Below, piece after piece: positions 4,944-63,526 of a DNA stretch of 64,000 nucleotides. Origin of the DNA: an uncultured bacterium (GTDB taxonomy: Bacteria > Actinomycetota > Geothermincolia > Geothermincolales > Geothermincolaceae). The position numbers and the translations under genes were made by a program. The stretch's first letter is position 1; each line of letters begins with the position of its first letter. The notes beneath the pieces were generated by a model. The model had not been told where the DNA came from, made no database searches, and saw only the letters and a list, made by a program, of their open reading frames with translations. The DNA is taken from NCBI GenBank assembly GCA_963814495.1, contig CAWFDJ010000016.1:96665-160664 (forward strand). Direction: 5' to 3'.

Positions 4944-5415
4944 TCAGCGCCAGTCGATGATCAGCTTGTGCGGGTCATCCTCGTCCACCAGCACCGCCAC
5001 CTGCGCCCCCGCCTGCAGGGCGGGCAGGTTCACCGGGTTGACGTATTCCCGGTGGGTGACCCCGTAGGTGGGTTTGCCCTCCACATTGACCTGCAGCTCC
5101 ATCTCCATCTGGGGCATGTTGTTCATCTCGCCGCCGGTGGCGCCGGAGGAGATGACCGTGGCCACGCCGCGCAGGCCGTCTTGACGCATCCTTACGGCCT
5201 TGCGGCCCGAGCGCGCGACGAAGTAGATCATGCCCGCGTAGACCACCAGGGTCAGGCCGATGAACCAGGCCCCCATGACGTACCAGAAGAACTTGAGGGA
5301 GTGGCCGTCGTCGGTCTGCGCAGCCGGGTCGGTCTCCAGCGCCGACCCAGATGAAGATGGCTCCCAGGATGATGAAGGGGACGCCGTCCAGACCGCCCAG
5401 GGTTTCATCCGCCAC
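4944..5415 (-). CDS. Hypothetical membrane protein (frameshift near 5335)
   Basis: Join of MADETLGGLDGVPFIILGAIFIWVG (ORF 4975..5415) with the C-terminus of ORF 4944..6416. That C-terminus has a second TM segment and the soluble tail ...DEDDPHKLIIDWR. Confidence 0.5.
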
Positions 5416-11742: not shown

Positions 11743-12373
11743 TCATCTCCTCATAAAGCGATAATCTCGCCGGTCTATGCATGACTCGTAGAGCCGCTTA
11801 TCGATGGTGATCCAATCAGTTCCATTGATACCTCTCTTGTTCCTGCTGTTCGCACCGACCGGAAACGCCGAGGCGGCTTTAATCCATCGATTCTGTGCCA
11901 TCGAAATGGACTTGATCTCATCAACGGCCTCAGTTAGGTCCTGATCCTGGCTGAATATCAAAGCGACGTCATAGAGCGACGCCCGCGCCATCTTTACCAC
12001 ATCCAGGGCAAGGCGGACATCGATTCCTTTCTCCTGCCCTATTCTAATAGACACTTCTCCACATCTCGGGCATCTGAAGGTCCTGTTCCTGTACCTCAGG
12101 GTCCTGGAAAAAGTCTCAATACCGCTGTTCTTCATCGTAGCGAGCTTAGCAGTCCAGAAGCGATTACGGTCATGGTCTTCCGTTATATCCGGAATCCCCG
12201 TATAGAAGAATATCCTGTCGAGATTCCACCCTTTGATGCTGCGATATCGCGTCGGCCAGCTTCATAGGATCATAGTTAGGGTAGCTGTAATCGAATGCTT
12301 CCTTCGCCGCATAGAAAAGGTTCTGGCCATCGAGGAAAGCAAATGCTCTTTTCTCTTCCGGTTCAGAAGGCAT
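11743..12373 (-). CDS. NYN (LabA-like) domain protein with zinc-ribbon-like insert (frameshift near 12180); lower G+C than flanks
   Basis: ORF 12170..12373 (KRAFAFLDGQNLFYAAKEAF) plus ORF 11743..12135 (CPRCGE, GIDVRLALDV, IFSQDQDL). Confidence 0.65.
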
Positions 12374-37877: not shown

Positions 37878-38159
37878 CTACCCCAGTATGGCCGCTTTCT
37901 GCGCGGCGAACTCCTCCTCCGAGAGGATCCCCTGCGCCTTCAGCTGCCCCAGGCGCTCGAGCTGGGCCAGCTTGTCGTCCATGTTGTCGGCGGGCGGGGG
38001 CGGGGGCGGGGGAGCCTGCTGCGCGTAGACCTGCTGTTCGGCCTGCGCGACGGCCTGCGCGTTCTTGCCCGCCTGCCGGCGGTCCACCGCGTTGCGGGTC
38101 GCCGTAGCGGTGCCGACCACCGCCGCCGTCCTGGCCATTCCTCTCATAAGTCCTGGCAT
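37878..38159 (-). CDS. SHOCT-domain protein, copy 1
   Basis: C-terminal LERLGQLKAQGILSEEEFAAQKAAILG and a poly-Pro tract. Confidence 0.75.
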   Translation of the reverse strand: MPGLMRGMARTAAVVGTATATRNAVDRRQAGKNAQAVAQAEQQVYAQQAPPPPPPPADNMDDKLAQLERLGQLKAQGILSEEEFAAQKAAILG

Positions 38160-38177
38160 CTTGTCTGTTCCTCCTTT

Positions 38178-38601
38178 CTATACGCCCAGCCCGGCGAGGG
38201 CGTCGTCGATGATGGGACCCGGTATGCGGAAGTCCAGGGCGACCCCCGCGCCGACTCCCTCCAGCGCCTTGCGCAGGCCGACGGCCCAGGCGTGCTCGAT
38301 GGCCAGCGCCACCACGGCGGAGCCGGGCACCATGCCTTCGATGAGTATGTCGGAGTCCTCGGAGTCGAAGAGCCCCGCGTCCCCGTCTCGATGAAGCCGA
38401 GGGATTTCTTGACGTCCTGGTCGAGGTCCTCGATGTCCAGGCCCGAGACCGTGCCGTCCATTTCCTTCATGACCACCATGGCGTCGAGGACGCGGAGGTC
38501 CCCTCGCTTGCCAGCCGCTGCAGCTCGCTCAATACGCTGCCGTCGATCTTCGGGTCACCGAAGGCGACGACCAACGACACTTCCACTGGTCCATGTTCCA
38601 T
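38178..38601 (-). CDS. Small conserved protein (DUF1269/DUF6325-like, from memory), copy 1 (frameshifted)
   Basis: MEHGPVEV..VVAFGDPKIDGSVLSELQRL...RVLDAMVVMKEMDGTVSGLDIEDL...AVVALAIEHAWA. Confidence 0.5.
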
Positions 38602-38638
38602 GCCATGCTCCTTTCTTGTTCCAGCTCATTATACGCAT

Positions 38639-38660
38639 TATAATGACTTAAGTCATTATA
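38639..38660. promoter_or_regulatory. Perfect palindrome TATAATGACTTAAGTCATTATA; operator/promoter of the copy-1 operon
   Basis: The minus strand reads TATAATGACTTAAGTCATTATAATGCGTATAATGAG, then GAAAGGAG and ATG. It is homologous to the TetR upstream region. Confidence 0.65.
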
Positions 38661-38839
38661 CCCAGTCAAGTAGTAAGGCAAACCAGCTGAATCCAGCCGT
38701 TGAGGTGCTGTTCCAAGCCCCAGGACAGCACTGAGCCAGGCAGCGGCTCAAGGCACGAGGATTCTACCGGGGCAGGTTTTCCTTCTTTCTCATGCCCTCG
38801 ACTGTGATCGTGGTGAAATCCCTGCATGCCGCGACGAGG

Positions 38840-40067: not shown

Positions 40068-40340
40068 CTACCCCAGGATGGCCGCCTTCTGCGCGGCGAA
40101 CTCCTCCTCCGAGAGGATCCCCTGCGCCTTCAGCTGCCCCAGGCGCTCATAGAGCTGGGCCAGCTTGTCGTCCATGTTGTCGGCGGGCGGGGGCGGGGGC
40201 GGGGGAGCCTGCTGCGCGTAGACCTGCTGTTCGGCCTGCGCGACGGCCTCGCGTTCTTTCCCGCCTGCCGGCGGTCCCACCGCGTTGCGGGTCGCCGTAG
40301 CGGTGCCGACCACCGCCGCCGTCCTGGCCATTCCTCTCAT
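40068..40340 (-). CDS. SHOCT-domain protein, copy 2
   Basis: Near-identical to 37878-38159, with a 3-nt insertion (LYERLGQL) and small indels. Confidence 0.75.
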   Translation of the reverse strand: MRGMARTAAVVGTATATRNAVGPPAGGKEREAVAQAEQQVYAQQAPPPPPPPADNMDDKLAQLYERLGQLKAQGILSEEEFAAQKAAILG

Positions 40341-40368
40341 AGTCCTGGCATCTTGTCTTTCTCCTTTT

Positions 40369-40792
40369 CTATACGCCCAGCTCGGCGAGGGCGTCGTCGA
40401 TGATGGGGCGGTATCCGGAAGTACAGGGCGACTCCCACGCCGACTCCCTCCAGCGCCTGCGCAGGCCGGACGGCCCAGGCGTGCTCGATGGCCAGCGCCA
40501 CCACGGCGGAGCCGGGCACCATGCCTTCGATGAGTATGTCGGAGTCCTCGGAGTCGAAGAGCCCCCGCGTCCCCCGTCTCGATGAAGCCGAGGGAGTTCC
40601 TTCACGTCCTGGTCGAGGTCCTCGATGTCCAGGCCCGAGACCGTACCGTCCATTTCCTTCATGACCACCATGGCGTCGAGGACACGGATGGTCCCCCTCG
40701 CTTGCCAGCCGCTGCAGCTCACTCAATACGCTGCCGTCGATCTTCGGGTCGCCGAAGGCGACGACCAACACCTCCACTGGTCCATGTTCCAT
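40369..40792 (-). CDS. DUF1269/DUF6325-like protein, copy 2 (frameshifted)
   Basis: MEHGPVEVLVVAFGDPKIDGSVLSELQRL... Duplicate of 38178-38601, but it lacks the upstream palindrome. Confidence 0.5.
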
Positions 40793-40883
40793 GCCGCGCT
40801 CCCTCTTCAGTCCCGTTGTTCTTCTCCGGCCAATAAACCTAGTAGGACAGTCTTGCCCCGCTGCGTCGATCGTCAACAAAAAA

Positions 40884-41000
40884 GCAGGCCAGCCGTGAAC
40901 CGGCCTGGCCTGCTGCTTCTTGTGGCACCACACCGTGGACGACGTAGAACCAGACTGATGAATGCGGAACAGGATATCCGCATCTCTCTGTGGTACGCTA
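40884..41000. repeat. Cassette-boundary element, copy A
   Basis: GC-rich hairpin GCAGGCCAGCCG-TGAA-CGGCCTGGCCTGC, then TGGCACCACACCGTGGACGACGTAGAACCAGACTGATGAATGCGGA...TCCGCATC...TGTGGTACGC. Confidence 0.8.
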
Positions 41001-41022
41001 TACCTGTAAGAAAGGAGTCGTG

Positions 41023-41266
41023 ATGGAAGTCGATTGGAGAAAGACCATTACCTCTGATCCCGAGGTATTAATGGGCAAGCCCGTGGTCAAGGGTACCCGG
41101 CTCTCAGTGAGTTCATCCTGGGCCTGTTGCCGAGGGCTGGACGGAAGGCAGGGTGCTTGAGGAATCCTCGAATCTTACTGCCGAGAGCATCCGGGCGGCA
41201 TTCGCCTTCGCGACCGAATGCATGCGTGAGGAATCCCTTTATCCTCTGGACTCCAAAGCCGTGTGA
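41023..41266 (+). CDS. DUF433 antitoxin-like protein (frameshifted)
   Basis: RBS AAGGAG. MEVDWRKTITSDPEVLMGKPVVKGTRLSVEFILGLL...YPNLTAESIRAAFAFA. TGA overlaps the next ATG. Confidence 0.7.
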
Positions 41267-41633
41267 TGGACTTCCTTGCCAACGAGAACATTCCCCGGTC
41301 AGTACCAGGCTGCTCGAGGAGAGTGGTCATGACATCCTTCGTATCGCTGACGAAATGCCCGGCGCGACCGACCGGCAAGTACTCGAGCGGGCAATCGAAG
41401 AGAACCGCATCATCCTGACTTTTGACCGCGATTATGGAGAACTGATATTCCGGCACAAGGCGCGTAATGTCAACGGCATCGTCTACTTTCGCTTCGCTCC
41501 GACTTCACCGGATGAGGCCGGGGTGATCCTGTCAGGCATACTTCAAGAGCAAGGCATAACCTTGGCAGGGATGTTCACGGTGATAGAGCGAGATAGGATA
41601 CGCCAGCGGGCGCTAGACGCAATAAATGATTGA
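41266..41633 (+). CDS. DUF5615 (PIN/Mut7-C-like) toxin-like protein (frameshifted)
   Basis: MDFLANENIPRSV...LLEESGHDILRIADEMPGATDRQVLERAIEENRIILTFDRDYGELIF. Confidence 0.7.
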
Positions 41634-41702
41634 GGCTCGCCTTGCGCATGGCCACGTAGCATTTATATCGCACGGTAATCGAAAGTGCACCAGGCACACT
41701 AA

Positions 41703-41825
41703 GAGCAGGCCAGAACGCATATCCTCTGACCTGCTCATCTTAGTGGCACCCCACAGTGGACGACGTTAGAACCAGAATCATGAATGCGGAACATGATTTT
41801 TACATCCCCCTACTGAGCCTTTCCT
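41703..41825. repeat. Cassette-boundary element, copy B
   Basis: Hairpin GAGCAGGCCAG...CTGACCTGCTC, then TGGCACCCCACAGTGGACGACGTTAGAACCAGAATCATGAATGCGGAACATGATT...ACATCCCCCTACTGAG. Confidence 0.8.
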
Positions 41826-42015
41826 GTTAACTGCGAAGGTTACGAGGGTGAATTGGTTAGACGGCGGAGCCGACCCTTATTCCTATTACCTATTCGAGGA
41901 AACCAACCGACATCGAGCATGCGTCTAAGGGACTATAATGGGGCTGGACCGGTGAAGAGCCGGAAGGAACACCATGATGCTGTTGGGCAAAGAATAAGAA
42001 GAAGGGGATCCTGCC

Positions 42016-43002
42016 ATGGAAGAGCAGCAGCTACCGAGCGTGCCGGAAAAGAAGCGTAGGAAGTATATCGTCATCATCGCCGCTTCCCTTATTGTGATAG
42101 CAGTAATCGCTACGGCGATAGCATTGTGGCCGGAGAAGAGCATCACGCCCACCAGCGACACCATAGTCGAAGAAGCACTCAACCATGAGGAGTTGATGTC
42201 CAGGGCTCTCGAGGCCGCACGTGAATACATGCCTACGGCAGCATCCCTTACCGTCTTCGACCGCCAGCGGGGCTGGCCGGGGCGGGAGGGGGCTTCGGCG
42301 TGAAGGATGCAGGCGGAGCCGACCTCGGCTTCGTGGCAGTTGACGCGCAAGGCAGACTTTCTTCGGTAGTAGTATTCAGCGGCGACAATATCTCCCTCGG
42401 AGAACAACTTGAGCCTCGAAGAGGCGGAGGATATCGCCGTAGGTATTATTGCAGGCAAGGGTATTGAACCTGAGCTTCTCCTGCTGGAAGAAGCAAATAT
42501 CCACCACCCGAGCGAACATGTAACCGAGTACCAGTTCATGTGTCGTCCTCATATGGCGACGTGCCGGTCTACGATCAAGACGAACTGCTCTATCCGGTTA
42601 TCTCCCGCAGGCGGATCGATAATGTTTTTTGGCCTGCACGGCTCGTTCGTTCTTCCCGACACGGAACCCACCGAAACGATGGTCACGGAGGAGGAAGCAA
42701 CCACACTCGCGTTGGATGAGTTCAGGAAGTCGATGGGAGAATCGGACTCGGAGCAATACTACCAAGGGTCTACAAGCGGCACCGATTTCGTGGTGACAGA
42801 GCCAGTCAAATTGGTATATGTCCAGATGGATGACAGCATCACGCCTCTGGAGGATAGACGCATCAAGAATAATTGTAGGAGAAGATGATGAGAATACATG
42901 TGGGATAGTAGACACGCATAGGATATACGAGGTAAACGCTACTACGGGAGAAGTGATATTTTCCGGGAGAATCCATGTAAGGCTCTCCAAGAAAAAGAAT
43001 AA
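42016..43002 (+). CDS. Membrane-anchored protein with PepSY-like repeats (frameshifted)
   Basis: N-terminal TM YIVIIAASLIVIAVIATAIAL. SLEEAEDIAVGII..., TEEEATTLALDEF... and HRIYEVNATTGEVIFSG. TATAAT at 41934-41939 lies upstream. Confidence 0.5.
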
Positions 43003-43115
43003 AGCGGATGCTTGCACATCCGCTTGTATGCTGGCACCCATCGTGGAGACGTCAGGAGCCCGGACTTCTGATTCGGAGAAGGATATTTACATTCCCGTAC
43101 TGAGTATTGCCAGTT
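43003..43115. repeat. Cassette-boundary element, copy C (most diverged core)
   Basis: AGCGGATG-CTTGCA-CATCCGCT, then TGGCACCCATCGTGGAGACGTCAGGAGCCCGGACTTCTGATTCGG...ACATTCCCGTACTGAGTATTGCCAGT. Confidence 0.75.
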
Positions 43116-43255
43116 GAAGGTATCTGCTTCGTTGAGAGATATAACGTTGCCTTGTTTAACGGTAATTTATGTAGAAGTGAGGAAAAGCAATCTCTCTTGC
43201 TATAATTGGATACAGCATCGGGCTGGCGTTCATGGGCGAAAAGGAGTAGTATTTA

Positions 43256-43479
43256 ATGCTTGTGGTTTTCCAATCATTTGGCCTTCCAGAATTAGGGATT
43301 CTAATTCTTATTTTCCTGATAATCTTTGGAATTCCAATGGCTATTGCAGTTGTAGCCCTTCTAGCAGTAAAGAGTGGCTCAAAGGACAAAGGCCAGAGAA
43401 GCCATATGACACCACCGAACCCTCCTCCAACACAGCCATGGCAACAGGGTTATATTCAACCACCTCAGAAAAAGAATAA
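43256..43479 (+). CDS. Small single-TM Pro/Gln-rich protein (3' end uncertain)
   Basis: RBS AAAGGAG. MLVVFQSFGLPELGILILIFLIIFGIPMAIAVVALLAV, then PPNPPPTQPWQQGYIQPPQ. TATAAT at 43201-43206. Confidence 0.4.
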
Positions 43480-43595
43480 GCGGATGCTTGCACATCCGCT
43501 TGTATTGCTGGCACCCCACCGTAGGACGACGACTCGAATCAGACTGATGAATGCAGATCAGGATATCAGCATCCCAATTCTGCTGTTGCCAGCTA
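43479..43595. repeat. Cassette-boundary element, copy D
   Basis: AGCGGATGCTTGCACATCCGCT, then TGGCACCCCACCGTAGGACGACGACTCGAATCAGACTGATGAATGCAGAT...ATCAGCATCCCAATTCTGCTGTTGCCAGC. It contains GACTCGAA, as in the tRNA T-loop region. Confidence 0.8.
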
Positions 43596-43701
43596 AAGAA
43601 CCCCCTTAGCCTGAACTGAAAAGCAATACTACCTCACGGATGATAAAATGTTCATAAGGGAATAGGGCGACATATAGGCTGGTGAAAGCTTGATAGCCTT
43701 C

Positions 43702-44324
43702 ATGGACGAGAGCAGAGTAAGAAATCTCTTCAAAAAGTGGCTGGAGCCTGACGAGGAGGGTCTTGCCATAGGAAAGGCATACAACAAGAACTGGTACACT
43801 TGTTATTACACCTGCCAGACCAGCCGAAGGATGCTGTTCATGCGTTGGAATCCTAGTGACAAGAAGTTCGTTGTCAAAGACAAGCCGTTCGATCAATACA
43901 GCAGCTTCATGCAGAGAAAGAGAATCATCGCAATCCCCTTTGACCACCCCTACCTGATTGGGAAGAAAGAACTGGGGATATATGAAAGACTGTTACAGGT
44001 TGCACGAACTGGGATTCCTCAGGGAGAGAGCCTAATAACTATGGCGAGAGTAAACAAAGGCTCCCTCAGCCACTTGCTTGTCATTAGTAATAATAGTCTT
44101 GTGATCTTCAGGATTGATAGAAAAAGTCTTGAGTCCTTAGCACGCAGGTGCATAATCTAGCAGATCTTAAAGAACTCTCATTTCTTAATGGCAAGAGGCG
44201 AGTAGTCATGGAGGTTCCGTTTGAGAAATGTCCAGGACTCACAGTGAAACTGAAGACCGCTGATGGTCAAACTGAGTCATATAGAATAAGGGACATATTA
44301 GGATGGGGTGGTATGCCTGCTTGA
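43702..44324 (+). CDS. Hypothetical protein with bacterial PH-like (YokE/GRAM-like) pattern (frameshifted)
   Basis: MDESRVRNLFKKWLEPDEEGLAIGKAYNKNWYTCYYTCQTSRRMLFMRW... The C-terminal part ...VMEVPFEKCPGLTVKLKTADGQTESYRIRDILGWGGMPA is in another frame. Confidence 0.4.
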
Positions 44325-44374
44325 TGAAGCTAGACCTTGTGGTTCGCATTATGGAGATACGATACATTATGAAT

Positions 44375-44490
44375 AAGCAGGGGCTTTCACCCCTGCTTAG
44401 TTTGCTGGCACCCATCGTGGACGACGTTGAGAACCAGAATCATGGAAGAAGTGCAGGATATCAACATTCCTATGCTGCTTGTTGCCAGCT
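44375..44490. repeat. Cassette-boundary element, copy E
   Basis: Different hairpin stem with a similar loop: AAGCAGGGG-CTTTCA-CCCCTGCTT. Then TGGCACCCATCGTGGACGACGTTGAGAACCAGAATCATGG...CAGGATATCAACATTCC...TTGCCAGC. Confidence 0.8.
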
Positions 44491-44632
44491 GAAAAGACCC
44501 CTTCAGCAGAGTTGACAAAGCAATGCTATCTTCATGGATGAGTAAAATGCCAATGAGGGAGAAGCCGTTTAAACTGCGCTAATAATTCGAATTAGGGCAT
44601 GAGTGAAGAGGGCAGAAGCAATGCTTAAGTTC

Positions 44633-45256
44633 ATGGATGAGGAGAGGGTCAAGAAGGGGATTCAAGAAACCCTGCAATCTGGTGAAACCCTCCAATCGGT
44701 CGGCAAGGCAATGAATAGAAGGTGGGGCTTCCGATACTATACTGGGTTTACCAATAATAGAGCGGTGCTTTTCCACATGGGTCGGAGCAGCACCTTATCG
44801 CAGCAGATTCATGCCCCTCTCTGGACTTGATAATTATGTAGAGGAGAAAGGTATTGAGTTACTGCCCTTTGATGCCCCCTTCATAGCTAGAAGAGGGCGT
44901 TAGTAATCTAGAGATTAGAGATGCTAAGCGAACATCTCGAACAAGGCGAGAGACTGATTAGCATGACTCGAGCCAATGGGGGCTTCCTGCATTATTGCTT
45001 AGGCTTTACTGGCCAACGGATAATCATGATAGAATCACCATCAAGGATGCAAACGAAAGGGCTTAATACAATAACTATAGAAGTATGAAAGATATTCATG
45101 CCACAGGGGTTTGGCCCTTAATAAGAGATGTAGTGATTGATGTACCTTTAGAATTGGTGGTTCGGAAAAGGAATGATAATTGAGTTCCAAAACGGAAACA
45201 CAAAGAGATTCAGGTTCGTAAACAGTGGCTTTATTAGCATGTACAATCCAGCATGA
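44633..45256 (+). CDS. Paralogue of 43702-44324 (heavily frameshifted, possibly a pseudogene)
   Basis: FMDEERVKKGIQETLQSGETLQSVGKAMNRRWGFRYYTGFTNNRAVLFHM. The C-terminal piece is ...IIEFQNGNTKRFRFVNSGFISMYNPA. The upstream leader is also homologous to that of the previous module. Confidence 0.35.
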
Positions 45257-45274
45257 GAGGAACTCAAAGCATAA

Positions 45275-45389
45275 AGCGGATGCTTGCACATCCGCTTTTA
45301 TTGCTGGCACCCATCGTGGACGACGTTAGAACCAGACTGATGAATTCGGAGCAGGATTTCTTCATCCCCGATTCTGTGTATTGCCAGCT
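45275..45389. repeat. Cassette-boundary element, copy F
   Basis: AGCGGATGCTTGCACATCCGCTTTTATTGC, then TGGCACCCATCGTGGACGACGTTAGAACCAGACTGATGAATTCGG...TTCATCCCCGATTCTGTGTATTGCCAGC. Confidence 0.8.
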
Positions 45390-45602
45390 GAGCGCATCCC
45401 CAAGCCCAAGCAGGGAACCAAACCCCATTATGCGATATAATAATGCAAGCACAGGCATAAATGGATGTTAGACGGTTAGGAAGGGGCAGGAACGGAATTA
45501 TTTCCTTCTGGTGTGGTTTATCCCACTCAGGCGACTTGTCCTTGTATTCATTGAGGAGAAAAAGAGGAGGGAGAAGACCGCAGAGAAAGCTAGTGGGAAG
45601 TG

Positions 45603-46054
45603 ATGGAGAAAAGGGAGTATAAGGATTTCACCAATTCCCTGGAGGAGAACTAGATAATGCATGATGGAATCCCAAACAGAGGCTTTGTCGAAGCGGTGCG
45701 CCAGTCCGAGCAACTCCTCCTCGAGGGACGATAAAGAACTCTACCAATACTTTCACAATAGCTTTCTATCGAAACGACAGCAGTTTGCACCCCACCCTTC
45801 AGAGAAGCTTATTGCCTTTAATAATAGCACCCATCCCCATAGTCATTATCGTGTTTTTTGTGTTTATAGTATGATCATCGCTGATCTTGATAAGCTTTAC
45901 ATCGCAATCCTTCTTTGCCACCCCCATCATCGTCAATTGGCGCACTTATCCTGCTTGGACTCACATGATCCAGAAAAGCGATTGAGAGATTGCTGAAGCA
46001 AGATCTGGAACTGCTCGCCAAGGGCAATGTGATAATAGATTCTCTGAATTCATA
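45603..46054 (+). CDS. Hypothetical small membrane protein (several frame changes; weak call)
   Basis: MEKREYKDFTNSLEEN..., hydrophobic IAPIPIVIIVFFVFIV, and the tail ERLLKQDLELLAKGNVIIDSLNS. TATAAT at 45436-45441. Confidence 0.25.
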
Positions 46055-46077
46055 GGATTAAAGAAAAAGCGGATGTT

Positions 46078-46192
46078 TGCACATCCGCTTTTATTGCTGG
46101 CACCCCATCGTGGACGACGTTAGAACCAGACTGATGGATATAGGGCATGATGTATACATTCCTATTCTGGGGTAGCCATCTGAAAAGGCCTA
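46078..46192. repeat. Cassette-boundary element, copy G (distal end degenerate)
   Basis: AGCGGATGTTTGCACATCCGCTTTTATTGC, then TGGCACCCCATCGTGGACGACGTTAGAACCAGACTGATGGAT...ACATTCCTATTCTGGGGTAGCCATC. Confidence 0.75.
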
Positions 46193-46275
46193 GAGGGATT
46201 GTTATCTCAGTCATGCGAATACTAAGCGGGAATTCTTTGTCTCAACAGAATCTTCACAAGGCTTCTGGACTTCAG

Positions 46276-47693
46276 TCAATTTTTTTGTTCGTACAAGACG
46301 CTCGCATCATTTAAAACTCTTTCTTCTCCTTCTCTCGCTCGCTCCCCTAAAACCTTAACGTCAAAACGCACCGCACCGGCTCCGGTGAAGGTCTTCGCCA
46401 TTCTCCATCTTCCGCCCTCCCAAAAGCCACATACCATGCAGAAGGATAAGTACCATTTGCACTCGACATCGCCGATGTACTTGTCCAATAATAGGGATAG
46501 TCAGCCTTTCCACCATCGTTTATAATACCGGTACAACTGAACAGTGCATTTATTGCGGGTCCTACATTGGCAGAGTTTGTTGCATAGGGCGAACGGGTGT
46601 AATCTACAAGACTTTGAAGTTCTTTTGCGTTAGGTAACCGCCAATCGTTGTGTCCCAGATAATTTGCTTTATTCTGCGTTTGAGCATAAGCCAGTGCGTG
46701 TTCCCAATCCATACCCGAACCGTTGTCGGTTTGTTGCCACATCAAGCCGGTAGCCAAATCGGAAATAGTTCCGTCGCCATTGTTTTGGAATAAATTGACG
46801 CCATACGCAAGATTGCCACGTACACAACGAACAAAGATGCTTTGGGCCTAGCACTGATGCTATACGCTTTAATATGTCCTGTGCCAAAATTCACACCGAA
46901 GGCAAGTTCTGCGCCGGGAGTTTTCCTCGCTTATATTGCCCATTACTCCGGTATATTTGTCGCTGCTCCAGAAAATGGCATGGCTGAGTTCTTCCTCACT
47001 GCTGTAATTGATGGTAAAATATTCTGTATCAATATAAGGCCAGCCGATACTTCCATTCCATAAAGAGTATAGTTCCTTTATGGTTGGCAACTCGCCAGTC
47101 GTTGTAGCCACCGTAGTTTTGTTTGTTCAGATTGTCAACTACGGTTTGAGTTCTGCCCAGTAATAAGTGCCACTGTCATGGCTTTGCTGCCAGGTTAAGC
47201 CGGTAACTTCGTCTTTAACGGTAAGTCCATCGCTGCTTTTAGGTGTAAACAGGCGTTGTATGTGTGAACTGAGCATCTTGTCCTAAAAGTGCATCGGGCG
47301 TAGGAGCAGTGATACTGTTGCCGTTGCCGTCCAAGAAACCAGCTTGACTTGTGCCAACGATCGGATAGCTCGATTTACGTGGAGGTTTCGCGAAAAATCT
47401 GTGAATCTCATGGGTGTTGGAAGAGGTTGAAGCTCCGTATGCCTTACAAGGCCCATAATTAGTGTACCACATTACTAATGTAATTCGCCCATGAGCACGG
47501 GAGAGAAGCTGTTTCTTTTGCACCAATTTAGCGACCCATAGGTTACGATGTATTTCGTATTACGCCATTCCCCAACCTTGTTATTAATCCGGTTATTTGG
47601 CCACATAATCGACGAGCCATCATAACCATCCTGCAAATCACCCTTGCAGGTTTGGACGAATCGGCCTTCTAAGTCTTGCCCATTGTTATGCAT
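46276..47693 (-). CDS. DUF1566 (Lcl C-terminal-like) repeat protein (several frame changes)
   Basis: GHNDWRLPNAKELQSLVDY, ELPTIKELYSLWN and YYWTSTS...AWYVAFG. Fragments are ORFs 47475.., 47239.., 46869.., 46347.. and 46276... Confidence 0.65.
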
Positions 47694-47718
47694 TCAAGCC
47701 GTAACACAGGAAAAGAAA

Positions 47719-47741
47719 AAGCGGATGCTTGCACATCCGCT
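47719..47741 (-). terminator. Terminator hairpin of tRNA-Arg, identical to the hairpin of repeat copies C, D and F
   Basis: AGCGGATGCTTGCACATCCGCT flanked by A-run and T-run (bidirectional). It is 8 nt from the tRNA CCA end. Confidence 0.75.
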
Positions 47742-47749
47742 TTTATTGC

Positions 47750-47826
47750 TGGCACGCCCGGAGGGACTCGAACCCCCAACCTGCTGGTCCGTAGCCAACC
47801 GCTCTATCCAATTGAGCTACGGGCGC
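47750..47826 (-). tRNA. tRNA-Arg (anticodon ACG), CCA encoded
   Basis: GCGCCCGTAGCTCAATTGGATAGAGC-G-GTTGG-CTACGGA-CCAGC-AGGTT-GGGGGTTCGAGTCCCTC-CGGGCGT-G-CCA. Upstream extended -10 TGCTAGAAT. Confidence 0.9.
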
Positions 47827-47839
47827 ACATATCAGGAGG

Positions 47840-48276
47840 TTATTCTAGCACCGCGGCGGGGCACCGGCAACCGACGGCCGGGACCGGGGCGTCCGCCGCG
47901 CCGGAAGTGCCTAGTCCTGAAGTCAGCTTGGCTTTCTTCGCGTCGTACTGCTCCTGGGTGATGGCACCCTTCTCCTTCAACTGCTCGAGCTTGAAGAGCT
48001 GGTCCGTCTCATGGGAGGCCCGGGCGTATTCGACGTCCTCCTCCATCTTCTTCTGCCGCTCCAGGTCCTTCTCGGTCAGGCTGAAGGGGCGGGCGATCCA
48101 GTAGACGAACACCCCGAGGAACGGCAGGAAGATGATGAAGAAGAGCCAAAACGCCACCAACCAGCCGCTCATATCCCTCTGGAACAGGTCCATCAGGTGA
48201 ACACCCACAGCATGATCAGGGGTATCCAGATCAGCATCAGAAAGAACCCGGCCCAGAAATTTTCCATTCCCAGCAT
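47840..48276 (-). CDS. PLDc_N + SHOCT two-domain small membrane protein (frameshift near 48200)
   Basis: MLGMENFWAGFFLMLIWIPLIML.., LMDLFQRDMSGWLVAFWLFFIIFLPFLGVFVYWIARP and LFKLEQLKEKGAITQEQYDAKKAKL. Confidence 0.65.
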
Positions 48277-48334: not shown

Positions 48335-48560
48335 TCAATACGTCACGGGGCGGTCATACCTGACGGGACGCGCGACCCAGTACACGATCGACCCCGATGA
48401 ACGGGAAGAAGATGATGAAGAAGAGCCACAGGACCAGCATCCACCAGGTCATGTAGCGACGGTGGAACAGGTCCCACAGGGTGTAGCCCCACATCATGAT
48501 CAGGGGCATAAAGATTATCAGGAGCAAGAAGCCTGCCCAGAAATTGTCCATCGCCAGCAT
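48335..48560 (-). CDS. Small PLDc_N-domain membrane protein (frameshift near 48385)
   Basis: MLAMDNFWAGFLLLIIFMPLIMMWGYTLWDLFHRRYMTWWMLVLWLFFIIFFPFIG, then SIVYWVARP in the adjacent frame. Confidence 0.6.
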
Positions 48561-48708: not shown

Positions 48709-49677
48709 CTATTCGTCCTCGGCCTCGTCGCTCTCCGGGATCATCCCGGGCGACGGGGCCTCCTCCGTCCTGGTGATGACCGCGGGCTCCCAGCGTCTCT
48801 GCAGGGTCTGCACTATCTCCGCCCCGAAGAAGATGAAGATGCCCACAATGTACAGCCAGAGCACGATGCCGATGACGATGCCCATGGACCCGTACAAGGC
48901 CTGGGTGGAGGAGATCTTGGTGAAGTAGATGCCCAGCAGGTATTCGGCTAAGTCCAGCAGCAGGGCCATGGGCAGGGCCGCCCAGAGGATCTCCTTCCAG
49001 CCCGGCTTGTTCTTGGGGATGGTCCGGTAGAGCAGGGCGAAGATGAGCATGGTGGCCAACGGGCTGACGATGTGGCTGGCTACCACCATCAGGCTGGAGA
49101 GGATCGGCCCTGTATGCTCGTTCACCCAGGAGAACAGATGGGTGGTGATGAAGGTGATGCCAGCCCGATGATGGCCACCAGCATTATCATCACCATCAGG
49201 GCGACGGAGTAGACCTTCTTGGCGATGTAGCTGCGTTGTTTCATCCCCCAGGCGGCCTCGAAGCCCAGCTGGAAGGAGTAGGTGATGCGGCTCATCGACC
49301 AGAGCAGGCCGATGAACCCGATGATTCCCAGGGTGCCGCGCAGGCGTTGTATGCTCTCCACGGAGGCCTGGGTGGTCCCCTGCATATCCGGCAGGGCTCG
49401 CTTGATGGCGTCGATCACCGACTGCATGGTCCCCGGGTCGTATTGGAAGATGTAGCCGACGATGGCGAAGATGAACAGTACCAGGGGGAAGAGGCCCAGG
49501 AAGGCGGAGTAGGCGAAGTTGCCGGCGTGCAGGGTCATCTTGTCCTTTATGAAACCTTCCCCGGACTCGTAGAGGACGTCCAGCCACCCGAACCGCCCGC
49601 GGGCTATCTGCAGACGCTTGAAGAGCTCCTCGCCCCGGCTCATGTATTCCCCGGTGAGCTCTTCCTTCTTGCTTCAT
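48709..49677 (-). CDS. YihY/BrkB-family membrane protein (frameshifted)
   Basis: HAGNFAYSAFLGLFPLVLF and GIIGFIGLLWS. C-terminal ...LWLYIVGIFIFFGAEIV. Confidence 0.7.
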   Translation of the reverse strand: MKQEGRAHRGIHEPGRGALQASADSPRAVRVAGRPLRVRGRFHKGQDDPARRQLRLLRLPGPLPPGTVHLRHRRLHLPIRPGDHAVGDRRHQASPAGYAGDHPGLRGEHTTPARHPGNHRVHRPALVDEPHHLLLPAGLRGRLGDETTQLHRQEGLLRRPDGDDNAGGHHRAGITFITTHLFSWVNEHTGPILSSLMVVASHIVSPLATMLIFALLYRTIPKNKPGWKEILWAALPMALLLDLAEYLLGIYFTKISSTQALYGSMGIVIGIVLWLYIVGIFIFFGAEIVQTLQRRWEPAVITRTEEAPSPGMIPESDEAEDE

Positions 49678-51644: not shown

Positions 51645-52052
51645 TTGATACCTTTCATCGAGAAGCGGCTGCGGACCCTGGTCCCGGTGTTCATCCAACC
51701 GGTGGAGGGACTGCCTCCCGTCGACCCCGACCAGGTGGTCTCCTTCGTCGACGAATACCTGGGCACGGGCATGCCGGAGTTCCGCCCCCTCTACTACACC
51801 TTCATCCTGGTGCTGGACGGGCTGTGCCTGCTGCGCCGCGGCAGGCCCCTCGCGCGCCTGGCGCCGGGCCAGGCCGTGGACTTCCTGGAGTCGGTCTACG
51901 CGAGCCGCCTGTCCGGGCTGCGGGCCATCCCTTCCCTGCTGGGCATGCCCATCTTCATGGCCCATTACGAGCGCGACGACATCCAGCCCCTGCTGGGCTT
52001 CGACGTCGATACCCTGAGGCAGGAAGCGGCGCAGCGGGGGGTGGAACGGTGA
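51645..52052 (+). CDS. Small hypothetical protein, translationally coupled to the GMC oxidoreductase
   Basis: 135-aa ORF (TTG start in the ORF track). Its TGA overlaps GTG 52049 of the next gene. Confidence 0.45.
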   Translation: MIPFIEKRLRTLVPVFIQPVEGLPPVDPDQVVSFVDEYLGTGMPEFRPLYYTFILVLDGLCLLRRGRPLARLAPGQAVDFLESVYASRLSGLRAIPSLLGMPIFMAHYERDDIQPLLGFDVDTLRQEAAQRGVER

Positions 52053-53573
52053 TCGTCCGGCCGGAGCAGCTGGGCGGGGACGTGGGGCGCTCCGCCGACG
52101 TGGTCATCATCGGCTCGGGGGCGGGGGGCGGCGTGACCGCCAAGGAGCTGGCGCAGGCCGGCTACTCGGTCATCGTCCTGGAGGAGGGCGGCTACTACAC
52201 CCGCGAGGACTTCGACTTCCGCCCGGCCCGCGCCTTCATGCGCTTCTACCGCGAGGCGGGCCAGACCATCACCCTGGGCCTGCCGGTGGTCCTGCTGCCC
52301 CAGGGAAAGACGGTGGGCGGCACCACCACCATCAACTCCGGCACCTGCCTGCGCATCCACCGCCACATCCTCAAGCGCTGGCACCTGGAGTCCGGCCTGA
52401 CCGAGCTGGCCGAGACCGAGCTCAACCTGCTCTACGCGGCGGTGGAGGAGTACCTCTTCGTCAAGCGGGCGGAGCGGGACGTGGTGGGGCGCAACGCCCT
52501 GCTCTTCCTGGAGACGGCCTGGCGCCTGGGCTACTCCGGCGGCTACCTCCCCCGCAACGCCAAGGACTGCGAGGGGTACGGGGTGTGCGCCTTCGGGTGC
52601 CCCTCCGGGGCCAAGCAGAGCGTCAACGTCTCCTACATCCCGGACGCGGTGGCGGCGGGGGCCGACGTCTACACCCACTGCCGGGTGGACCGCATCGTGA
52701 CGCAGGGGCGGGCGGGCGACCGGGGTGCGCGGCCACTTCGTCGACCCGGTGAGCGGGCGGCGGCGGGGTGCCATCGAGGTGGAGGCGCGCGTGACCGTGC
52801 TGGCGGGAGGGGCCATCCAGTCGCCCAACCTGCTGCTGCGCAACCGGCTGTGCGGGGGTTCCGGGCAGCTGGGCGCCAACCTCTCCATCCACCCCTGCAC
52901 CGGCACCACCGCCGTCCTGGACGAGGTGCTGGGCAACCCCAAGGGCATCCCCCAGTCCACCTACGTGGACGAGTTCGCCCCCGACGGCATCATGCTGGAG
53001 GGCGGCACCATCTCCCCCGGCGTCTTCGCCTTCTCCATGCCCTGGGGCGGGCGGCGCCACGCCCGGGCCATGGCCGGCTACCCGCGCACCGGCATCTTCG
53101 GGGCCATGATCAGCGAGCACGACTCGGTGGGGCGGGTGCTTCCCGGCACCACGGCGTCCCGTCCCCTGGTCCTCTACAGGATGGGGCGGGAGGACATCGA
53201 GCGCCTGAAGCGGGCGGTGATCCTCTCGGCGGAGATCTGGTTCGCCGCCGGGGCCCGGCACGTGGAGACCATCTTCAACGGCTTCCGGGAGATGGGCCCG
53301 CGCGACCTCTCCCGCCTGGTGCACACGCGGGTGCGGCCGGCCGACATCTACGGGCTCTCCGCCTACCACCCCATGGGCACCTGCCGCATGGGAAGCGACC
53401 CGGACTGGTCGGTGGTCAGGCCCACCGGCGAGGCCTGGGAGGTGGAGGACCTCTTCGTCTGCGACGCCAGCATCCTGCCGACCTCGCTGGGGGTCAACCC
53501 GCAGCTGACGGTGATGGCCCTGGCCACCCGCATCGCCGGCTGCATCGACGACCGCCTGGAAGCGAAAAAGTGA
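52049..53573 (+). CDS. GMC-family FAD-dependent oxidoreductase (frameshift near 52715)
   Basis: ADVVIIGSGAGGGVTAKELAQAGYSVIVLEEG and C-terminal YHPMGTCRMG. Confidence 0.8.
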
Positions 53574-53580
53574 CGAAATA

Positions 53581-53603
53581 GTGATGGTGCCTGGCACCAT
53601 CAC
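53581..53603. repeat. Palindrome GTGATGGTGCCTGGCACCATCAC (family copy 2)
   Basis: Perfect 11-1-11 palindrome, 8 nt after the GMC stop. Confidence 0.7.
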
Positions 53604-61759: not shown

Positions 61760-62316
61760 CTCGCGTCCCCCTTCCGTCCAGCACGCTCCCGCTAAGACCA
61801 TTCTAAGCCCGCATTCTTCATTTGAAACCTGAAGGACTCTGTGCTTGTATTGCGTAATACTTCATCAGTACAGTGTTTCAGGGCAGTGCAGGACTTCATG
61901 GAGGGAAAATCCAGTGAAGCAGGAAGAGGGGCGAAAGGGCTCGATTCTGATGGCAGCATCAAGCTGGGATTCCAGGGGGCCAAGGTGACCACCGACGCCA
62001 GGATATGCGCCTGCTTGAAGCTGTCCTCAACCCGGCCTGCCTTCGGTATGAGCGTGCATGCAGCGGTCAATGCATGCCGGAATCGGGCGAAAACGCTCTT
62101 CGGGGAGGTTCTGCCTGCCGATCCGTGAATGGAGCGGCCGGTCGGCGGCCCGAAGCACGGACGAATGCAAGTACTGTGGTAGAATACCGATGGAGGGAAG
62201 GGTGTCAGGTTCATATGAACGTCGGGTGTTTTGTCGTGGCCGAGTGTTGTATGCTCCTTCCTGTATAGGGTTGTAGAAAGAGCAGTGTGTTGTTCATCAC
62301 GGAGGTGGAAAGGACG

Positions 62317-63526
62317 ATGAGAAAGGCCATCATCATCGCGTTGACACTGCTCTTGGTGCTGCCTCTCCTGTCCACCGGCTGCGCCGAAGGCACGAAGGGG
62401 CCTTCAGTCGACCTGGAAAAGGTGTCGGAGTTCGAAGGCGGGTTCCTGTACAAGTCAGATGGGATATACGTCTGCCAGCTGAACGGGAGCTACGAGGAGA
62501 TGGGGCGCCAGTACGGCGGGCTGATGAAGACACAGATCAGGCAGTTTCACGACGAAGCGATGAAGGCGATCGTATCAAACGCGAAACCGACAGACGAAGC
62601 ACTCAATGGGATACCGGAAAAACAGTACGAGAAGTACCCGGCAAGGATAAAGGGCATATTCACAGGGATGGAGGAGACGTCGGGTCTCAGCCTTGCCGAG
62701 CTCAAGTTCTGCGACTCGGTCGAAACTGTGGCTATGGCCGGCGAACTCAGCCGGGCCAACTGCTCGGCCGTCGTCGCATGGGGACCCTATACGGGTGGAG
62801 GGCCGCTCGTCTTCGGGAGGAACTTCGATTACCCTGACTACTTCAAGGAGTTCAACGATACCCTGACGGTCGTCGTCTACAACCCGAATGACGGGAGCAG
62901 GTCGACCGCGACGCTGGTCAATGCGGGACAGGTCTGTACCCTGAACTCGTTCAACGACAAGGGCCTGATGCTCGAGGTAAACGACGGCATGGGGTCGGGT
63001 GATCTGAGGAGCGTGGAGAACCGGGCGTCGAACCTGATCGAAGCACTGACGTTCCTGCTGGATGCCTCGGACTTCGTTTACCTCGATTCCGAACTGGAGA
63101 GCACGCTGCCGTATCACGCGTTCATCATCACCGCATCAGATTCGAGAAGAGGCGTTCACCTACGAGATGAGCACGTCAGAGGTCAAGCGGCGCGGCGGCC
63201 GGGACGGGCTGCTGGTGGCGACGAACCACTTCGTGAATACCGACTGGAACATCCAGTTGGAACAGCAGCCTGCCTGGTTCCAGCCCTTCGTGGCTGACTC
63301 TGAGGTCAGGAGCGACAACCTCACCGCCCTCGCGGAAGCGAACAAGGGCAAGCTAGACGTCGATACGATGAAGGGGATCATGGAAACGCCGCTCGATAAA
63401 GGCGGAGCGACATACTCCGGCACCATATACCAGTTCGTCGCCGAGCCGTCCGCGCGCGAGGTGTGGGTACGGGCACCGGGTTTCCAGGACTGGACACTGG
63501 TCGAGTACGGGGAGTTATTCGACTGA
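62317..63526 (+). CDS. C45-family Ntn-hydrolase lipoprotein (frameshift near 63140)
   Basis: RBS GGAGGTGGAAAGG. Lipobox LLSTGC. SRANCSAVVAWG and FGRNFDY. The C-terminal piece is ORF 63062..63526. Confidence 0.55.

Follow-up and report, generated by a model that had tools for sequence, protein, structure and literature searches.

How do seven small gene modules, separated by copies of one conserved element and accompanied by no recombinase, come to lie in a row beside a tRNA gene? The question is raised by positions 40884–47826 of a 64 kb stretch (the window) of contig CAWFDJ010000016.1 from GCA_963814495.1, an assembly of an uncultured bacterium of the Geothermincolales; coordinates are window positions unless another contig is named. 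The seven modules are very probably integrative cassettes that lack a recombinase and have accumulated one beside another at the 3' end of tRNA-Arg(ACG), and that belong to a family moved by a large serine recombinase (LSR) whose attachment site (attP) lies within the last ~30 codons of its own gene. Tandem accretion is favoured because the repeats consist of LSR gene tails and tRNA ends, a related genome carries a different set of cassettes at the same tRNA gene, and no recombinase was found in the window. The repeats are homologous to the LSR C-terminus, and in relatives the gene itself is found split at the tRNA.

An earlier note on this DNA had described seven repeats in one orientation and, at tRNA-Arg(ACG), an eighth hairpin; a repeat search, a profile of the repeat core, ARAGORN and Rfam bear this out. 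The families recovered by the repeat search of the window (hairpin plus core) lie at the positions noted, and a DNA profile derived from the core (nhmmer) places seven copies in the 64 kb and no more, every one of them on the + strand, starting at 40923, 41744, 43032, 43509, 44406, 45305 and 46098 (E 1e-15 to 1e-22); no copy lies beside either tRNA-Ser gene of the window. The copies show 10–40% mutual divergence and are spaced 477–1652 bp apart. The conserved blocks listed in the note are present in the cores, and the motif GTGGACGACGN{0,3}AGAACCAGA occurs 5 times in the window, against 0.00 expected from shuffles. On the + strand, tRNA-Arg is preceded by the same hairpin and TTATTGCTGGCAC as each core. 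Each interval was confirmed, by open reading frames (ORFs) and Pfam, to hold one gene or one DUF433/DUF5615 toxin-antitoxin pair, on the + strand in six of the seven. The sharp fall in G+C is also real, with 0.44–0.54 between 41 and 48 kb and ~0.65 in the flanks; overall, the array is an island of 45–53% G+C in a genome of 65%. From the distal boundary to the tRNA, the features are:

40884–40913, − strand: G+C-rich terminator hairpin (terminator scan 40907–40885 plus T-run; fold −30 kcal/mol, z = −5.3)
40923–40995, + strand: core c1, TGGCAC (copy of the tRNA 3' end) plus tail frame with a 1-nt deletion (nhmmer E = 3.6e-17)
41023–41633, + strand: cargo 1, beginning with a DUF433 antitoxin-like gene at 41023–41266 (Pfam E = 1.4e-19), frameshifted as read
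41266–41633, + strand: cargo 1, second gene, DUF5615 PIN-like (Pfam E = 5.8e-19), frameshifted as read
41705–41734: imperfect hairpin at the right end of cassette 1, GCAGGCCAG...CTGACCTGC, its outer stem like that of the probably native hairpin at 40884–40913
41744–41829, + strand: core c2, TGGCAC plus an intact 24-codon tail, VDDVRTRIMNAEHDFYIPLLSLSC and stop (nhmmer E = 4.4e-22)
42016–42990, + strand: cargo 2, membrane-anchored protein in at least three frames (ORFs 42016–42303, 42300–42467, 42409–42888); no significant Pfam match
43004–43022, − strand: terminator hairpin GCGGATGCTTGCACATCCGC, right end of cassette 2 (terminator scan 43025–43002)
43032–43117, + strand: core c3, recognition block degenerate (GTGGAGACGTCAGGAGCCCGG), open 24-codon tail ending in IPVLSIAS and stop (nhmmer E = 1.2e-15)
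43256–43477, + strand: cargo 3, small Pro-rich membrane protein; no Pfam family
43480–43498, − strand: terminator hairpin, right end of cassette 3 (terminator scan 43501–43478)
43509–43595, + strand: core c4, degenerate, with GTG changed to GTA, a recognition block enlarged by additional bases, and TAA as the stop (nhmmer E = 2.1e-16)
43702–44324, + strand: cargo 4, orphan protein, 215 aa if intact (ORFs)
44377–44396: variant hairpin GCAGGGGCTTTCACCCCTGC with compensatory stem changes, right end of cassette 4 (repeat family)
44406–44492, + strand: core c5, tail with a 1-nt insertion, corrected reading VDDVRTRIMEEVQDINIPMLLVAS and stop (nhmmer E = 5.9e-21)
44603–45250, + strand: cargo 5, degraded paralogue of cargo 4 (shared repeat families, ORFs)
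45276–45294: hairpin GCGGATGCTTGCACATCCGC, right end of cassette 5 (repeat family)
45305–45391, + strand: core c6, tail with a 1-nt insertion, corrected reading VDDVRTRLMNSEQDFFIPILCIAS and stop (nhmmer E = 1.7e-22)
45461–45996, + strand: cargo 6, orthologue of a 164-aa protein of the related contig L020 (blastn, ORFs)
46069–46087, − strand: terminator hairpin, right end of cassette 6 (terminator scan 46092–46065)
46098–46183, + strand: core c7, tail with a 1-nt deletion near its end (nhmmer E = 5.2e-21)
46347–47693, − strand: cargo 7, Lcl_C (DUF1566) protein of the tRNA-proximal cassette, frameshifted as read (Pfam E = 2.6e-24)
47721–47739, − strand: cassette-borne terminator hairpin, now the terminator of tRNA-Arg (terminator scan 47744–47717; fold −18 kcal/mol, z = −4.3)
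47750–47826, − strand: tRNA-Arg(ACG), the attachment site, its CCA corresponding to the TGG of every junction (ARAGORN; Rfam tRNA, 61 bits)

The contents of the intervals thus comprise the DUF433/DUF5615 pair, a membrane-anchored protein, a small Pro-rich membrane protein, an orphan gene and its degraded paralogue, a further orphan gene, and the Lcl_C gene. The most distal hairpin has a host-like G+C content, unlike the remaining ones, and is probably the native terminator of tRNA-Arg, displaced by 6.8 kb and marking the distal boundary of the island. The terminator hairpins of the cassettes fold at −15 to −18 kcal/mol (z −3.7 to −4.3), are followed by a U-run and lie on the tRNA strand. Most long genes are frameshifted as read, host genes included (e.g. 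48709–49677, 51824–53581, 42016–42990 and 46347–47693). As the breaks affect host and island genes alike, they suggest an indel-rich, perhaps long-read-only, assembly rather than pseudogenes, and apparent gene decay in the cassettes has to be judged with this in mind. Indels of 1 nt occur in five of the seven copies of the repeat and are absent from the cleaner relative L020.

The earlier note had taken the repeat for a single structured element of ~115 bp. The repeat is real, but it is a composite of three parts: a terminator hairpin of the tRNA strand, a short copy (6–9 bp) of the tRNA 3' end in which TGG is the complement of CCA, and the 3' coding tail of a recombinase gene. The sequence TGGCAC, complementary to CCA, G73, U72 and G71, is found at all seven cores and at the tRNA itself. 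Beyond it, the core reads on the + strand as GTG GAC GAC GTT AGA ACC AGA (CTG/ATC) ATG ... ATC CCC ATT CTG ... GCC AGC TGA, which six-frame translation and codon layout resolve into the 24-codon peptide (V/M)DDVRTR(L/I)MNxEQD(I/V)xIP(I/V)LSIAS-stop. The position of the stop is fixed while TGA or TAA is used, the start codon varies between GTG and ATG (the latter in one copy of a relative), the Ile-Pro codons appear as ATC CCC, ATT CCT or ATA CCA, and hydrophobic positions interchange I, V, L, F and M. Synonymous codon differences number 188 of 577 in this frame and 21–136 in the five others. The fixed stop and the codon-type pattern of substitution indicate that the core is a coding frame. Its first ~17–20 nt, GTGGACGACGTTAGAAC, are conserved as DNA across phyla, AT-rich genomes included, which suggests that this stretch is under an additional constraint; it may be the right half-site of the recombinase. 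The stretch is also similar to an antisense T-arm (GGAC...GAACC) into which 5 nt have been inserted. Which bases come after TGG depends on the local tRNA: the window has CAC (tRNA-Arg), the metagenome contig L019 has GGT, L028 has CAGGGCA (tRNA-Trp) and L036 has CGGGCC (tRNA-Asp). Correspondingly, the two codons after the Trp codon match the discriminator and acceptor strand of the target, and give HP in the window, QG at tRNA-Trp and RA at tRNA-Asp.

The origin of the tail became apparent from a peptide profile (HMMER), which matched 68 proteins at E ≤ 1e-3 among 1.84e9 representatives. Most of these are ORFs of 29–97 aa, often with the motif at their C-terminus, and several others are C-terminal fragments of LSRs. 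One match, P0026, is 556 aa long and ends in ...LCLEW RS IVEDVRTAIMNYKGLIYIPKLSIS; its Resolvase, Recombinase and Zn_ribbon_recom domains (Pfam) identify it as a large serine recombinase. On its contig (L033) the gene ends as AAAAAAGAAGC-ACTACG-GCTTCTT TGTCTGGAA TGG CGGTCAATC GTAGAGGACGTTAGAACC ... TAA, and this layout of hairpin, 9 nt, TGG, 9 nt and GTAGAGGACGTTAGAACC is that of the window junction in intact form. A search with P0026 found >5,300 relatives, and the C-termini of the best 120 homologues were sorted. Seventy-one read on past the Trp with W-x-x-x-D-S-N-(P/Q/R)-R..., which is what an antisense tRNA T-arm encodes, and represent the integrated state. Fifteen carry the tail, 16 stop no more than 6 residues after the Trp, and 18 have other C-termini, a few of them with divergent tails. 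The core of the window repeats is homologous to the last ~24 residues of intact P0026 and of 14 more full-length LSRs; in an alignment of 15 members of the family this Trp is invariant, and the family pattern of the tail is (I/T)V-D-D-V-R-T-(R/K)-I-...-I-Y-I-P-x-L-...-stop, 21–26 codons long.

The split state of the gene can be seen directly in several relatives. The LSR gene adjoins and reads into its target gene or repeat in L034, L036 and L039, in the first two of which the ORF runs into a tRNA-Asp(GTC) on the opposite strand. On a contig labelled as viral, the LSR ORF reads into tRNA-Trp; in two further cases it enters sequence that resembles a tRNA but is not called by ARAGORN. The system appears to span distant lineages, from the high-G+C bacterium of the window to genomes resembling the candidate phyla radiation (CPR)/Patescibacteria. 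The terminator hairpin of the tRNA sits inside the LSR ORF (L033, 2440–2475; L034, 11545–11590; L036, 11560–11605), where its A-tract and stem double as codons, for K-K-E-A-L-R-L-L in L033 and L034 and for K-E-T-E-R-I-K-A-L-R in L036. Many LSR homologues have a conserved K-T-E-A-L-A-S-V, which a near-perfect palindrome could encode, codon choice permitting.

The following sequence of events would account for these observations. In the free, circular form, the LSR frame would run through the hairpin, the invariant Trp codon (TGG), two tRNA-matching codons and the tail of 21–26 codons. Recombination at or next to the TGG, the exact crossover position being one that we infer, would split the gene; the tail would end up at the tRNA-distal end of the insert, and the gene body, if present, would read into the tRNA. 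The hairpin would land immediately 3' of the tRNA as a replacement terminator, and since it is an intrinsic terminator on the tRNA strand, each insertion would supply the tRNA with a new one. If the gene is split at TGG, each window repeat is made up of the right end of one cassette (hairpin plus ~9 nt plus TGG), 3–6 bp shared with the tRNA, and the left end of the next cassette (the tail). The junction of a circularised single cassette would read hairpin-TTATTGC-TGGCAC-CCCATCGTGGAC. New units would presumably enter at the tRNA-proximal junction, as the LSR element of L036 is the proximal one, and as the window and L020 share the second cassette and differ in the proximal one. The encoded tRNA-Arg has a G1-U72 wobble pair atop the acceptor stem and G73 as discriminator, and the end in L020 is identical; because U72-G73-CCA is the TGGCA of every core, the terminal bases of the tRNA may be supplied by cassettes rather than native.

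That no recombinase is present had been stated in the earlier note, and it holds as far as the searches reach: Pfam finds no recombinase or transposase among ~50 ORFs scanned in the window. Six LSRs used as tblastn queries matched tails only, and no remnant of an LSR body, in the window, in L020, L022 and L028, and in the distal portion of L036. With no LSR body in the window or L020, the units there are recombinase-less derivatives and not autonomous members of the family. The LSR that moved them would have acted in trans, its gene lying at another place in the genome or on an element that came in.

Relatives of the array were found through its proteins and its translated core. Exact-pattern scans of GTDB genomes and JGI metagenomes (TGGCACCN{4,6}GTGGACGACGN{0,3}AGAAC) returned chance or coding matches only (L003–L018), because the pattern is too specific to the lineage of the window; two pattern scans of viral contigs gave nothing relevant, and an exact look-up of the window flavodoxin gave no contig. 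A profile of the translated core found five short ORFs, one on L020 and the others on AT-rich metagenome contigs. L020 is a 20-kb contig of the metagenome-assembled genome GCA_936416865.1 and is syntenic with the window (tRNA-Arg(ACG), SHOCT/PLDc_N, BrkB, flavodoxin, tRNA-Ser), the host flanks being 77–82% identical (blastn). At least six cores lie upstream of its tRNA-Arg, five of the six intact and the sixth truncated. A single cassette is common to both (45266–46185, 80% nucleotide identity by blastn), and is the second from the tRNA. The tRNA-proximal cassette carries the Lcl_C gene in the window, a gene absent from L020, and in L020 a PQQ-type beta-propeller protein; the distal cassettes differ as well. 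Cassettes have turned over between these two relatives at the same tRNA-Arg. L020 also has two half-cores (5104–5134 and 1683–1738). One retains only the first ~30 nt (TGGCACGCC ATC ATG GAC GAC GTT AGA ACC), with an ATG start and one extra tRNA-matching base, while of the other just the latter half of the tail survives; both appear to have arisen by deletion or recombination within cores.

Similar arrangements occur at other tRNA genes. The sole homologue of cargo 4 among 5.8e9 proteins, P0001 (80% identity), is encoded on the 1.3-kb contig L019, where core, gene, hairpin and TTGCTGG are followed by a fragment of a different tRNA; TGG is followed by GGT at both junctions there, and by CAC in the window. 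The AT-rich L022 has three cores with a Fic gene and membrane genes, every annotated cassette gene lying on the strand opposite to the tail frame. L028, also AT-rich, has a single cassette beside tRNA-Trp, again with its cargo opposite to the tail. In L028 (335–417 and 1370–1481), the distal tRNA-Trp remnant is preceded by TGG, and yet none of the four tRNA genes of the contig encodes CCA; the cassette may have been imported from a host whose tRNA genes do encode it, or the site may have had a different past. This TGG had also suggested that a mature tRNA was reverse-transcribed, an idea that was dropped: it is a single case, import from a CCA-encoding host explains it equally well, and the link to the LSR makes it unnecessary. 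In the CPR-like L036, tRNA-Asp is followed by an adjoining LSR element and then by four LSR-less units of 0.5–1 kb. A tail stands at the start of every unit, which with that of the LSR element makes five; three of them follow the tRNA-Asp end CGGGCC, two of these with an intact TGG. The earlier suggestion that integrase-less, tRNA-targeting elements had accreted here is thus upheld by the tRNA-end boundaries, the different set in L020 and the tRNA-proximal recombinase of L036.

Several other identities of the repeat were considered and rejected. A structured RNA is not indicated: in Rfam 15 nothing matches the cores at the gathering score or even at E ≤ 10, the three genuine tRNAs being the only gathering-score matches, and consensus folds of the core (RNAalifold, both strands) are weak (−9.2 and −8.3 kcal/mol), with unfavourable, positive covariation terms. 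A hammerhead ribozyme, for which CTGATGA was the cue, was rejected by inspection, as two copies read ATCATGA/ATCATGG and no GAAA follows. The cues for a tRNA- or tmRNA-like element were a 7-bp 'acceptor stem' (GCTGGCA/TGCCAGC), a T-loop-like motif (GGTTCTAAC) and tag-like ends (...IAS/...PAA); ARAGORN finds no tRNA in the cores, and the frame is antisense to the CCA end. The GCTGGCA/TGCCAGC pairing is lost in L019 and L020, which also speaks against an insertion sequence or a miniature inverted-repeat element, as do the unrelated ends (tail and hairpin) and the absence of a transposase in the window. A dyad around TGG (CATCCGC-9-TGG-9-GTGGACG) is visible in the window family and unconvincing in L033 and L036; no claim is drawn from it.

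The closest precedent, by analogy, is provided by the ssrA islands of Dehalococcoides and their ~540-aa serine recombinase DsiB, described by McMurdie et al. in 2011 (PMC3146451). Their target is a stable RNA gene, at its tRNA-like 3' end, of which short direct repeats mark the island boundaries (PMC3146451). The 3' end of dsiB overlaps the attachment site, so the integrated gene has no stop codon of its own, and it was proposed to be complete only on the circle or before an island supplying 'the requisite 3' gene fragment' (PMC3146451). The islands are multi-gene (amplicons covering ~90% of vcr islands measure 8.3–10.5 kb) and occur in tandem, 15 of them without an integration module (PMC3146451). 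As described, they therefore resemble the present family in having a serine recombinase, a gene lying across its attachment site, boundary repeats from the 3' end of an RNA gene, tandem arrangement and recombinase-less units. The window has the tRNA-end boundary repeats, the completing 3' fragment and the tandem, variable content, and it has no abutting recombinase gene. The targets here are tRNA-Arg, and tRNA-Asp and tRNA-Trp in relatives, rather than ssrA; the units of the window measure 0.5–1.6 kb, with one gene each, and all lack a recombinase, whereas the ssrA islands are multi-gene; and the 3' fragment is defined as a conserved tail of 21–26 codons in distant lineages, with a terminator hairpin inside the recombinase ORF. 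Ordinary tRNA targets, a defined detached tail, a terminator within the recombinase ORF, and single-gene recombinase-less units are the new elements, and the literature on the motif, or on serine recombinases with attP in their own gene at tRNAs, offered no direct description beyond the Dehalococcoides paper.

Other systems share parts of this design. Cis-mobilizable elements (CIMEs) keep attL and attR and have lost their integration and transfer genes; they are decayed integrative and conjugative, or integrative and mobilizable, elements of several kb, mostly with tyrosine integrases (PMC5704250). Like them, the units of the window are bounded by tRNA-end repeats (putative att sites) and have no recombinase in their cargo; unlike them, they are single-gene, with uniform minimal ends and no trace of lost genes. 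CIMEs are mobilised in cis with an adjacent autonomous element; in L036 an autonomous LSR element adjoins LSR-less units, which might allow the same. In the archaeal SSV-type 'suicidal' integrases, the recombination site lies within the ORF and integration at a tRNA gene splits it (PMC7253208). Those integrases are archaeal tyrosine recombinases; the present enzyme, a serine recombinase of bacteria, loses no more than a short tail of 21–26 codons. A gene that spans the att site and yields a different protein in the free and integrated states also recalls the integration-dependent immunity of mycobacteriophages. In these phages attP lies in the repressor gene, which loses its C-terminal ~30 codons upon integration at a tRNA-associated attB. 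There, however, the split gene is the repressor, the integrase is a tyrosine recombinase, and cassette arrays are not involved.

Membership of the integrons, to which the earlier note had likened the array, is extremely unlikely. The repeats would then be attC-type sites for an IntI-like tyrosine recombinase encoded elsewhere, as in clusters of attC sites lacking integron-integrases (CALINs), and there is a real likeness in the small, mostly co-oriented, single-gene cassettes, the toxin-antitoxin module, the fixed anchor, and a recombinase that is missing from the window and may be off-locus. The cores, however, have one GTTAGAA resembling GTTRRRY and no inverted partner box (RYYYAAC / GTTRRRY; the paired R''/R' boxes), which agrees with the absence of canonical attC boxes already noticed. 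Their folds are weak and without supporting covariation, their variable part evolves in a codon-like manner, and they are homologous to the C-terminus of a serine, not a tyrosine, recombinase. Junctions copy a tRNA 3' end, which takes the place of attI as the anchor; cassettes bring their own terminators and apparent promoters; and in L022 all annotated cassette genes are opposite to the tail frame. Also very unlikely is that the core has a function in its own right, be it as a 24-aa micro-protein or leader peptide or as a structured non-coding RNA, and is repeated because it regulates each downstream gene. The frame is indeed open and conserved, even in LSR-less cassettes, and the stop of c1 overlaps the antitoxin start as read. 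But it has no Shine-Dalgarno sequence, the start is lost in some copies (GTA in c4, and L022 at 2323), cargo is on the opposite strand in L022 and L028, no Rfam family matches, and the peptide is the C-terminus of an LSR, always fused to a copy of the tRNA end. The chance that the array is an artefact, by repeat collapse or chimera in a noisy long-read assembly, is negligible. The window does have many indels; the seven copies nevertheless differ mutually by the 10–40% given above, and the same architecture is present in the independent assemblies L020, L019, L022–L025, L028–L032 and L036.

More weight must be given to the possibility, tentative as it is, that the cassettes are not mobile, and are CIME-type fossils: decayed remnants of complete LSR-bearing islands, whose differences arose by deletion or homologous recombination. 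A three-step history of this type is proposed in the CIME/accretion model (PMC5704250), and the 15 Dehalococcoides islands without integration modules could be seen as parallels. The recognition blocks of c3 and c4 are degenerate, many cargo genes are broken as read, and the LSR-less units of L036 have heterogeneous right ends. Decay would, however, require seven independent deletions, each ending exactly at A-tract plus hairpin, and no remnant of an LSR body was found in the LSR-less cassettes of the window, L020, L022, L028 or L036. The comparison leans towards units mobile in trans because right ends are near-identical in the window and L020 (A-tract, GCGGATGCTTGCACATCCGC, TTTTATTGC, TGG) despite different cargo, because cargo 4 recurs, without a recombinase, beside a different tRNA remnant, and because 13 of the 14 tails in the cleaner assemblies L020, L022 and L036 are open.

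Accretion driven by an LSR also has difficulties of its own. The full-length LSRs recovered are from AT-rich, CPR/Patescibacteria-like genomes and have in common with the window repeats only the ~24-aa tail and the layout; no cognate LSR from the lineage of the window itself was recovered. The hairpins behind cargo 4 differ between the window and L019, so cassette ends do not always travel with their cargo, and the heterogeneous right ends in L036 likewise counsel caution. Canonical LSRs recombine attP with attB, and insertion beside an earlier cassette would mean recombination of attP with a P/B' hybrid site, a hypothetical step in this family. Excision, circular forms and present-day mobility are likewise conjectural. 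Finally, many cargo genes are frameshifted, probably through assembly error, with decay as the alternative.

If the cassettes do move in trans, they might go further and form a working, serine-recombinase counterpart of the integron, a possibility that we would put forward with reserve. Minimal single-gene units would be captured at, and shuffled from, the tRNA 3' end by an LSR acting in trans, and the tails would be kept open because they are used. Each unit would be self-expressed, consisting of tail, promoter, gene and bidirectional terminator. As an LSR element directly upstream of a cassette would regain a full ORF from the tail of that cassette, the array would act as a recombinase switch as well as a gene store. 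Boxes resembling −10 elements (TATAAT or TGnTAAAAT) are present between tail and cargo in the window (43620–43690, 44520–44545, 45420–45440) and before cargo in relatives (L020, 10270–10290, 10945–10960 and 11660–11675; L019, 160–185), which suggests that cassettes may carry their own promoters, unlike most integron cassettes.

For genome annotation, the combination of terminator hairpin, TGG, a few tRNA bases, GTGGACGACGTTAGAAC and ...IYIPxL provides a signature that delimits mobile cassettes at tRNA genes without a nearby recombinase. It extends a little-noticed observation of 2011 in Dehalococcoides to a large family on ordinary tRNA genes, and defines the missing 3' fragment. Mobilisation in trans, if true, would amount to an integron-like capture of genes built on a serine recombinase, and the compact att sites with a built-in split-gene switch would then be of interest to those engineering LSRs.

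Some smaller features within and around the array may be added. As read, c1 has a lengthened tail frame whose TGA shares bases with the DUF433 start codon, ATG (GTGATGG, 41010–41025), just after AAGGAG, which could be translational coupling or a coincidence made by an indel. In c2, an in-frame TAG lies directly upstream of TGG. On its distal side the island is closely flanked by a duplicated operon of SHOCT small proteins with neighbouring ORFs (37878–38700, 40068–40933), and further small membrane proteins of SHOCT/PLDc_N type are found beyond the tRNA (47840–48208, 48354–48560). Two other patches of low G+C (0.57–0.58) occur at 11746–12261, with a Pfam NYN domain, and at 62269–63294, which by eye is NYN/LabA-like and apparently frameshifted (the Pfam scan of its ORF found no family); both may be separate, horizontally acquired genes.

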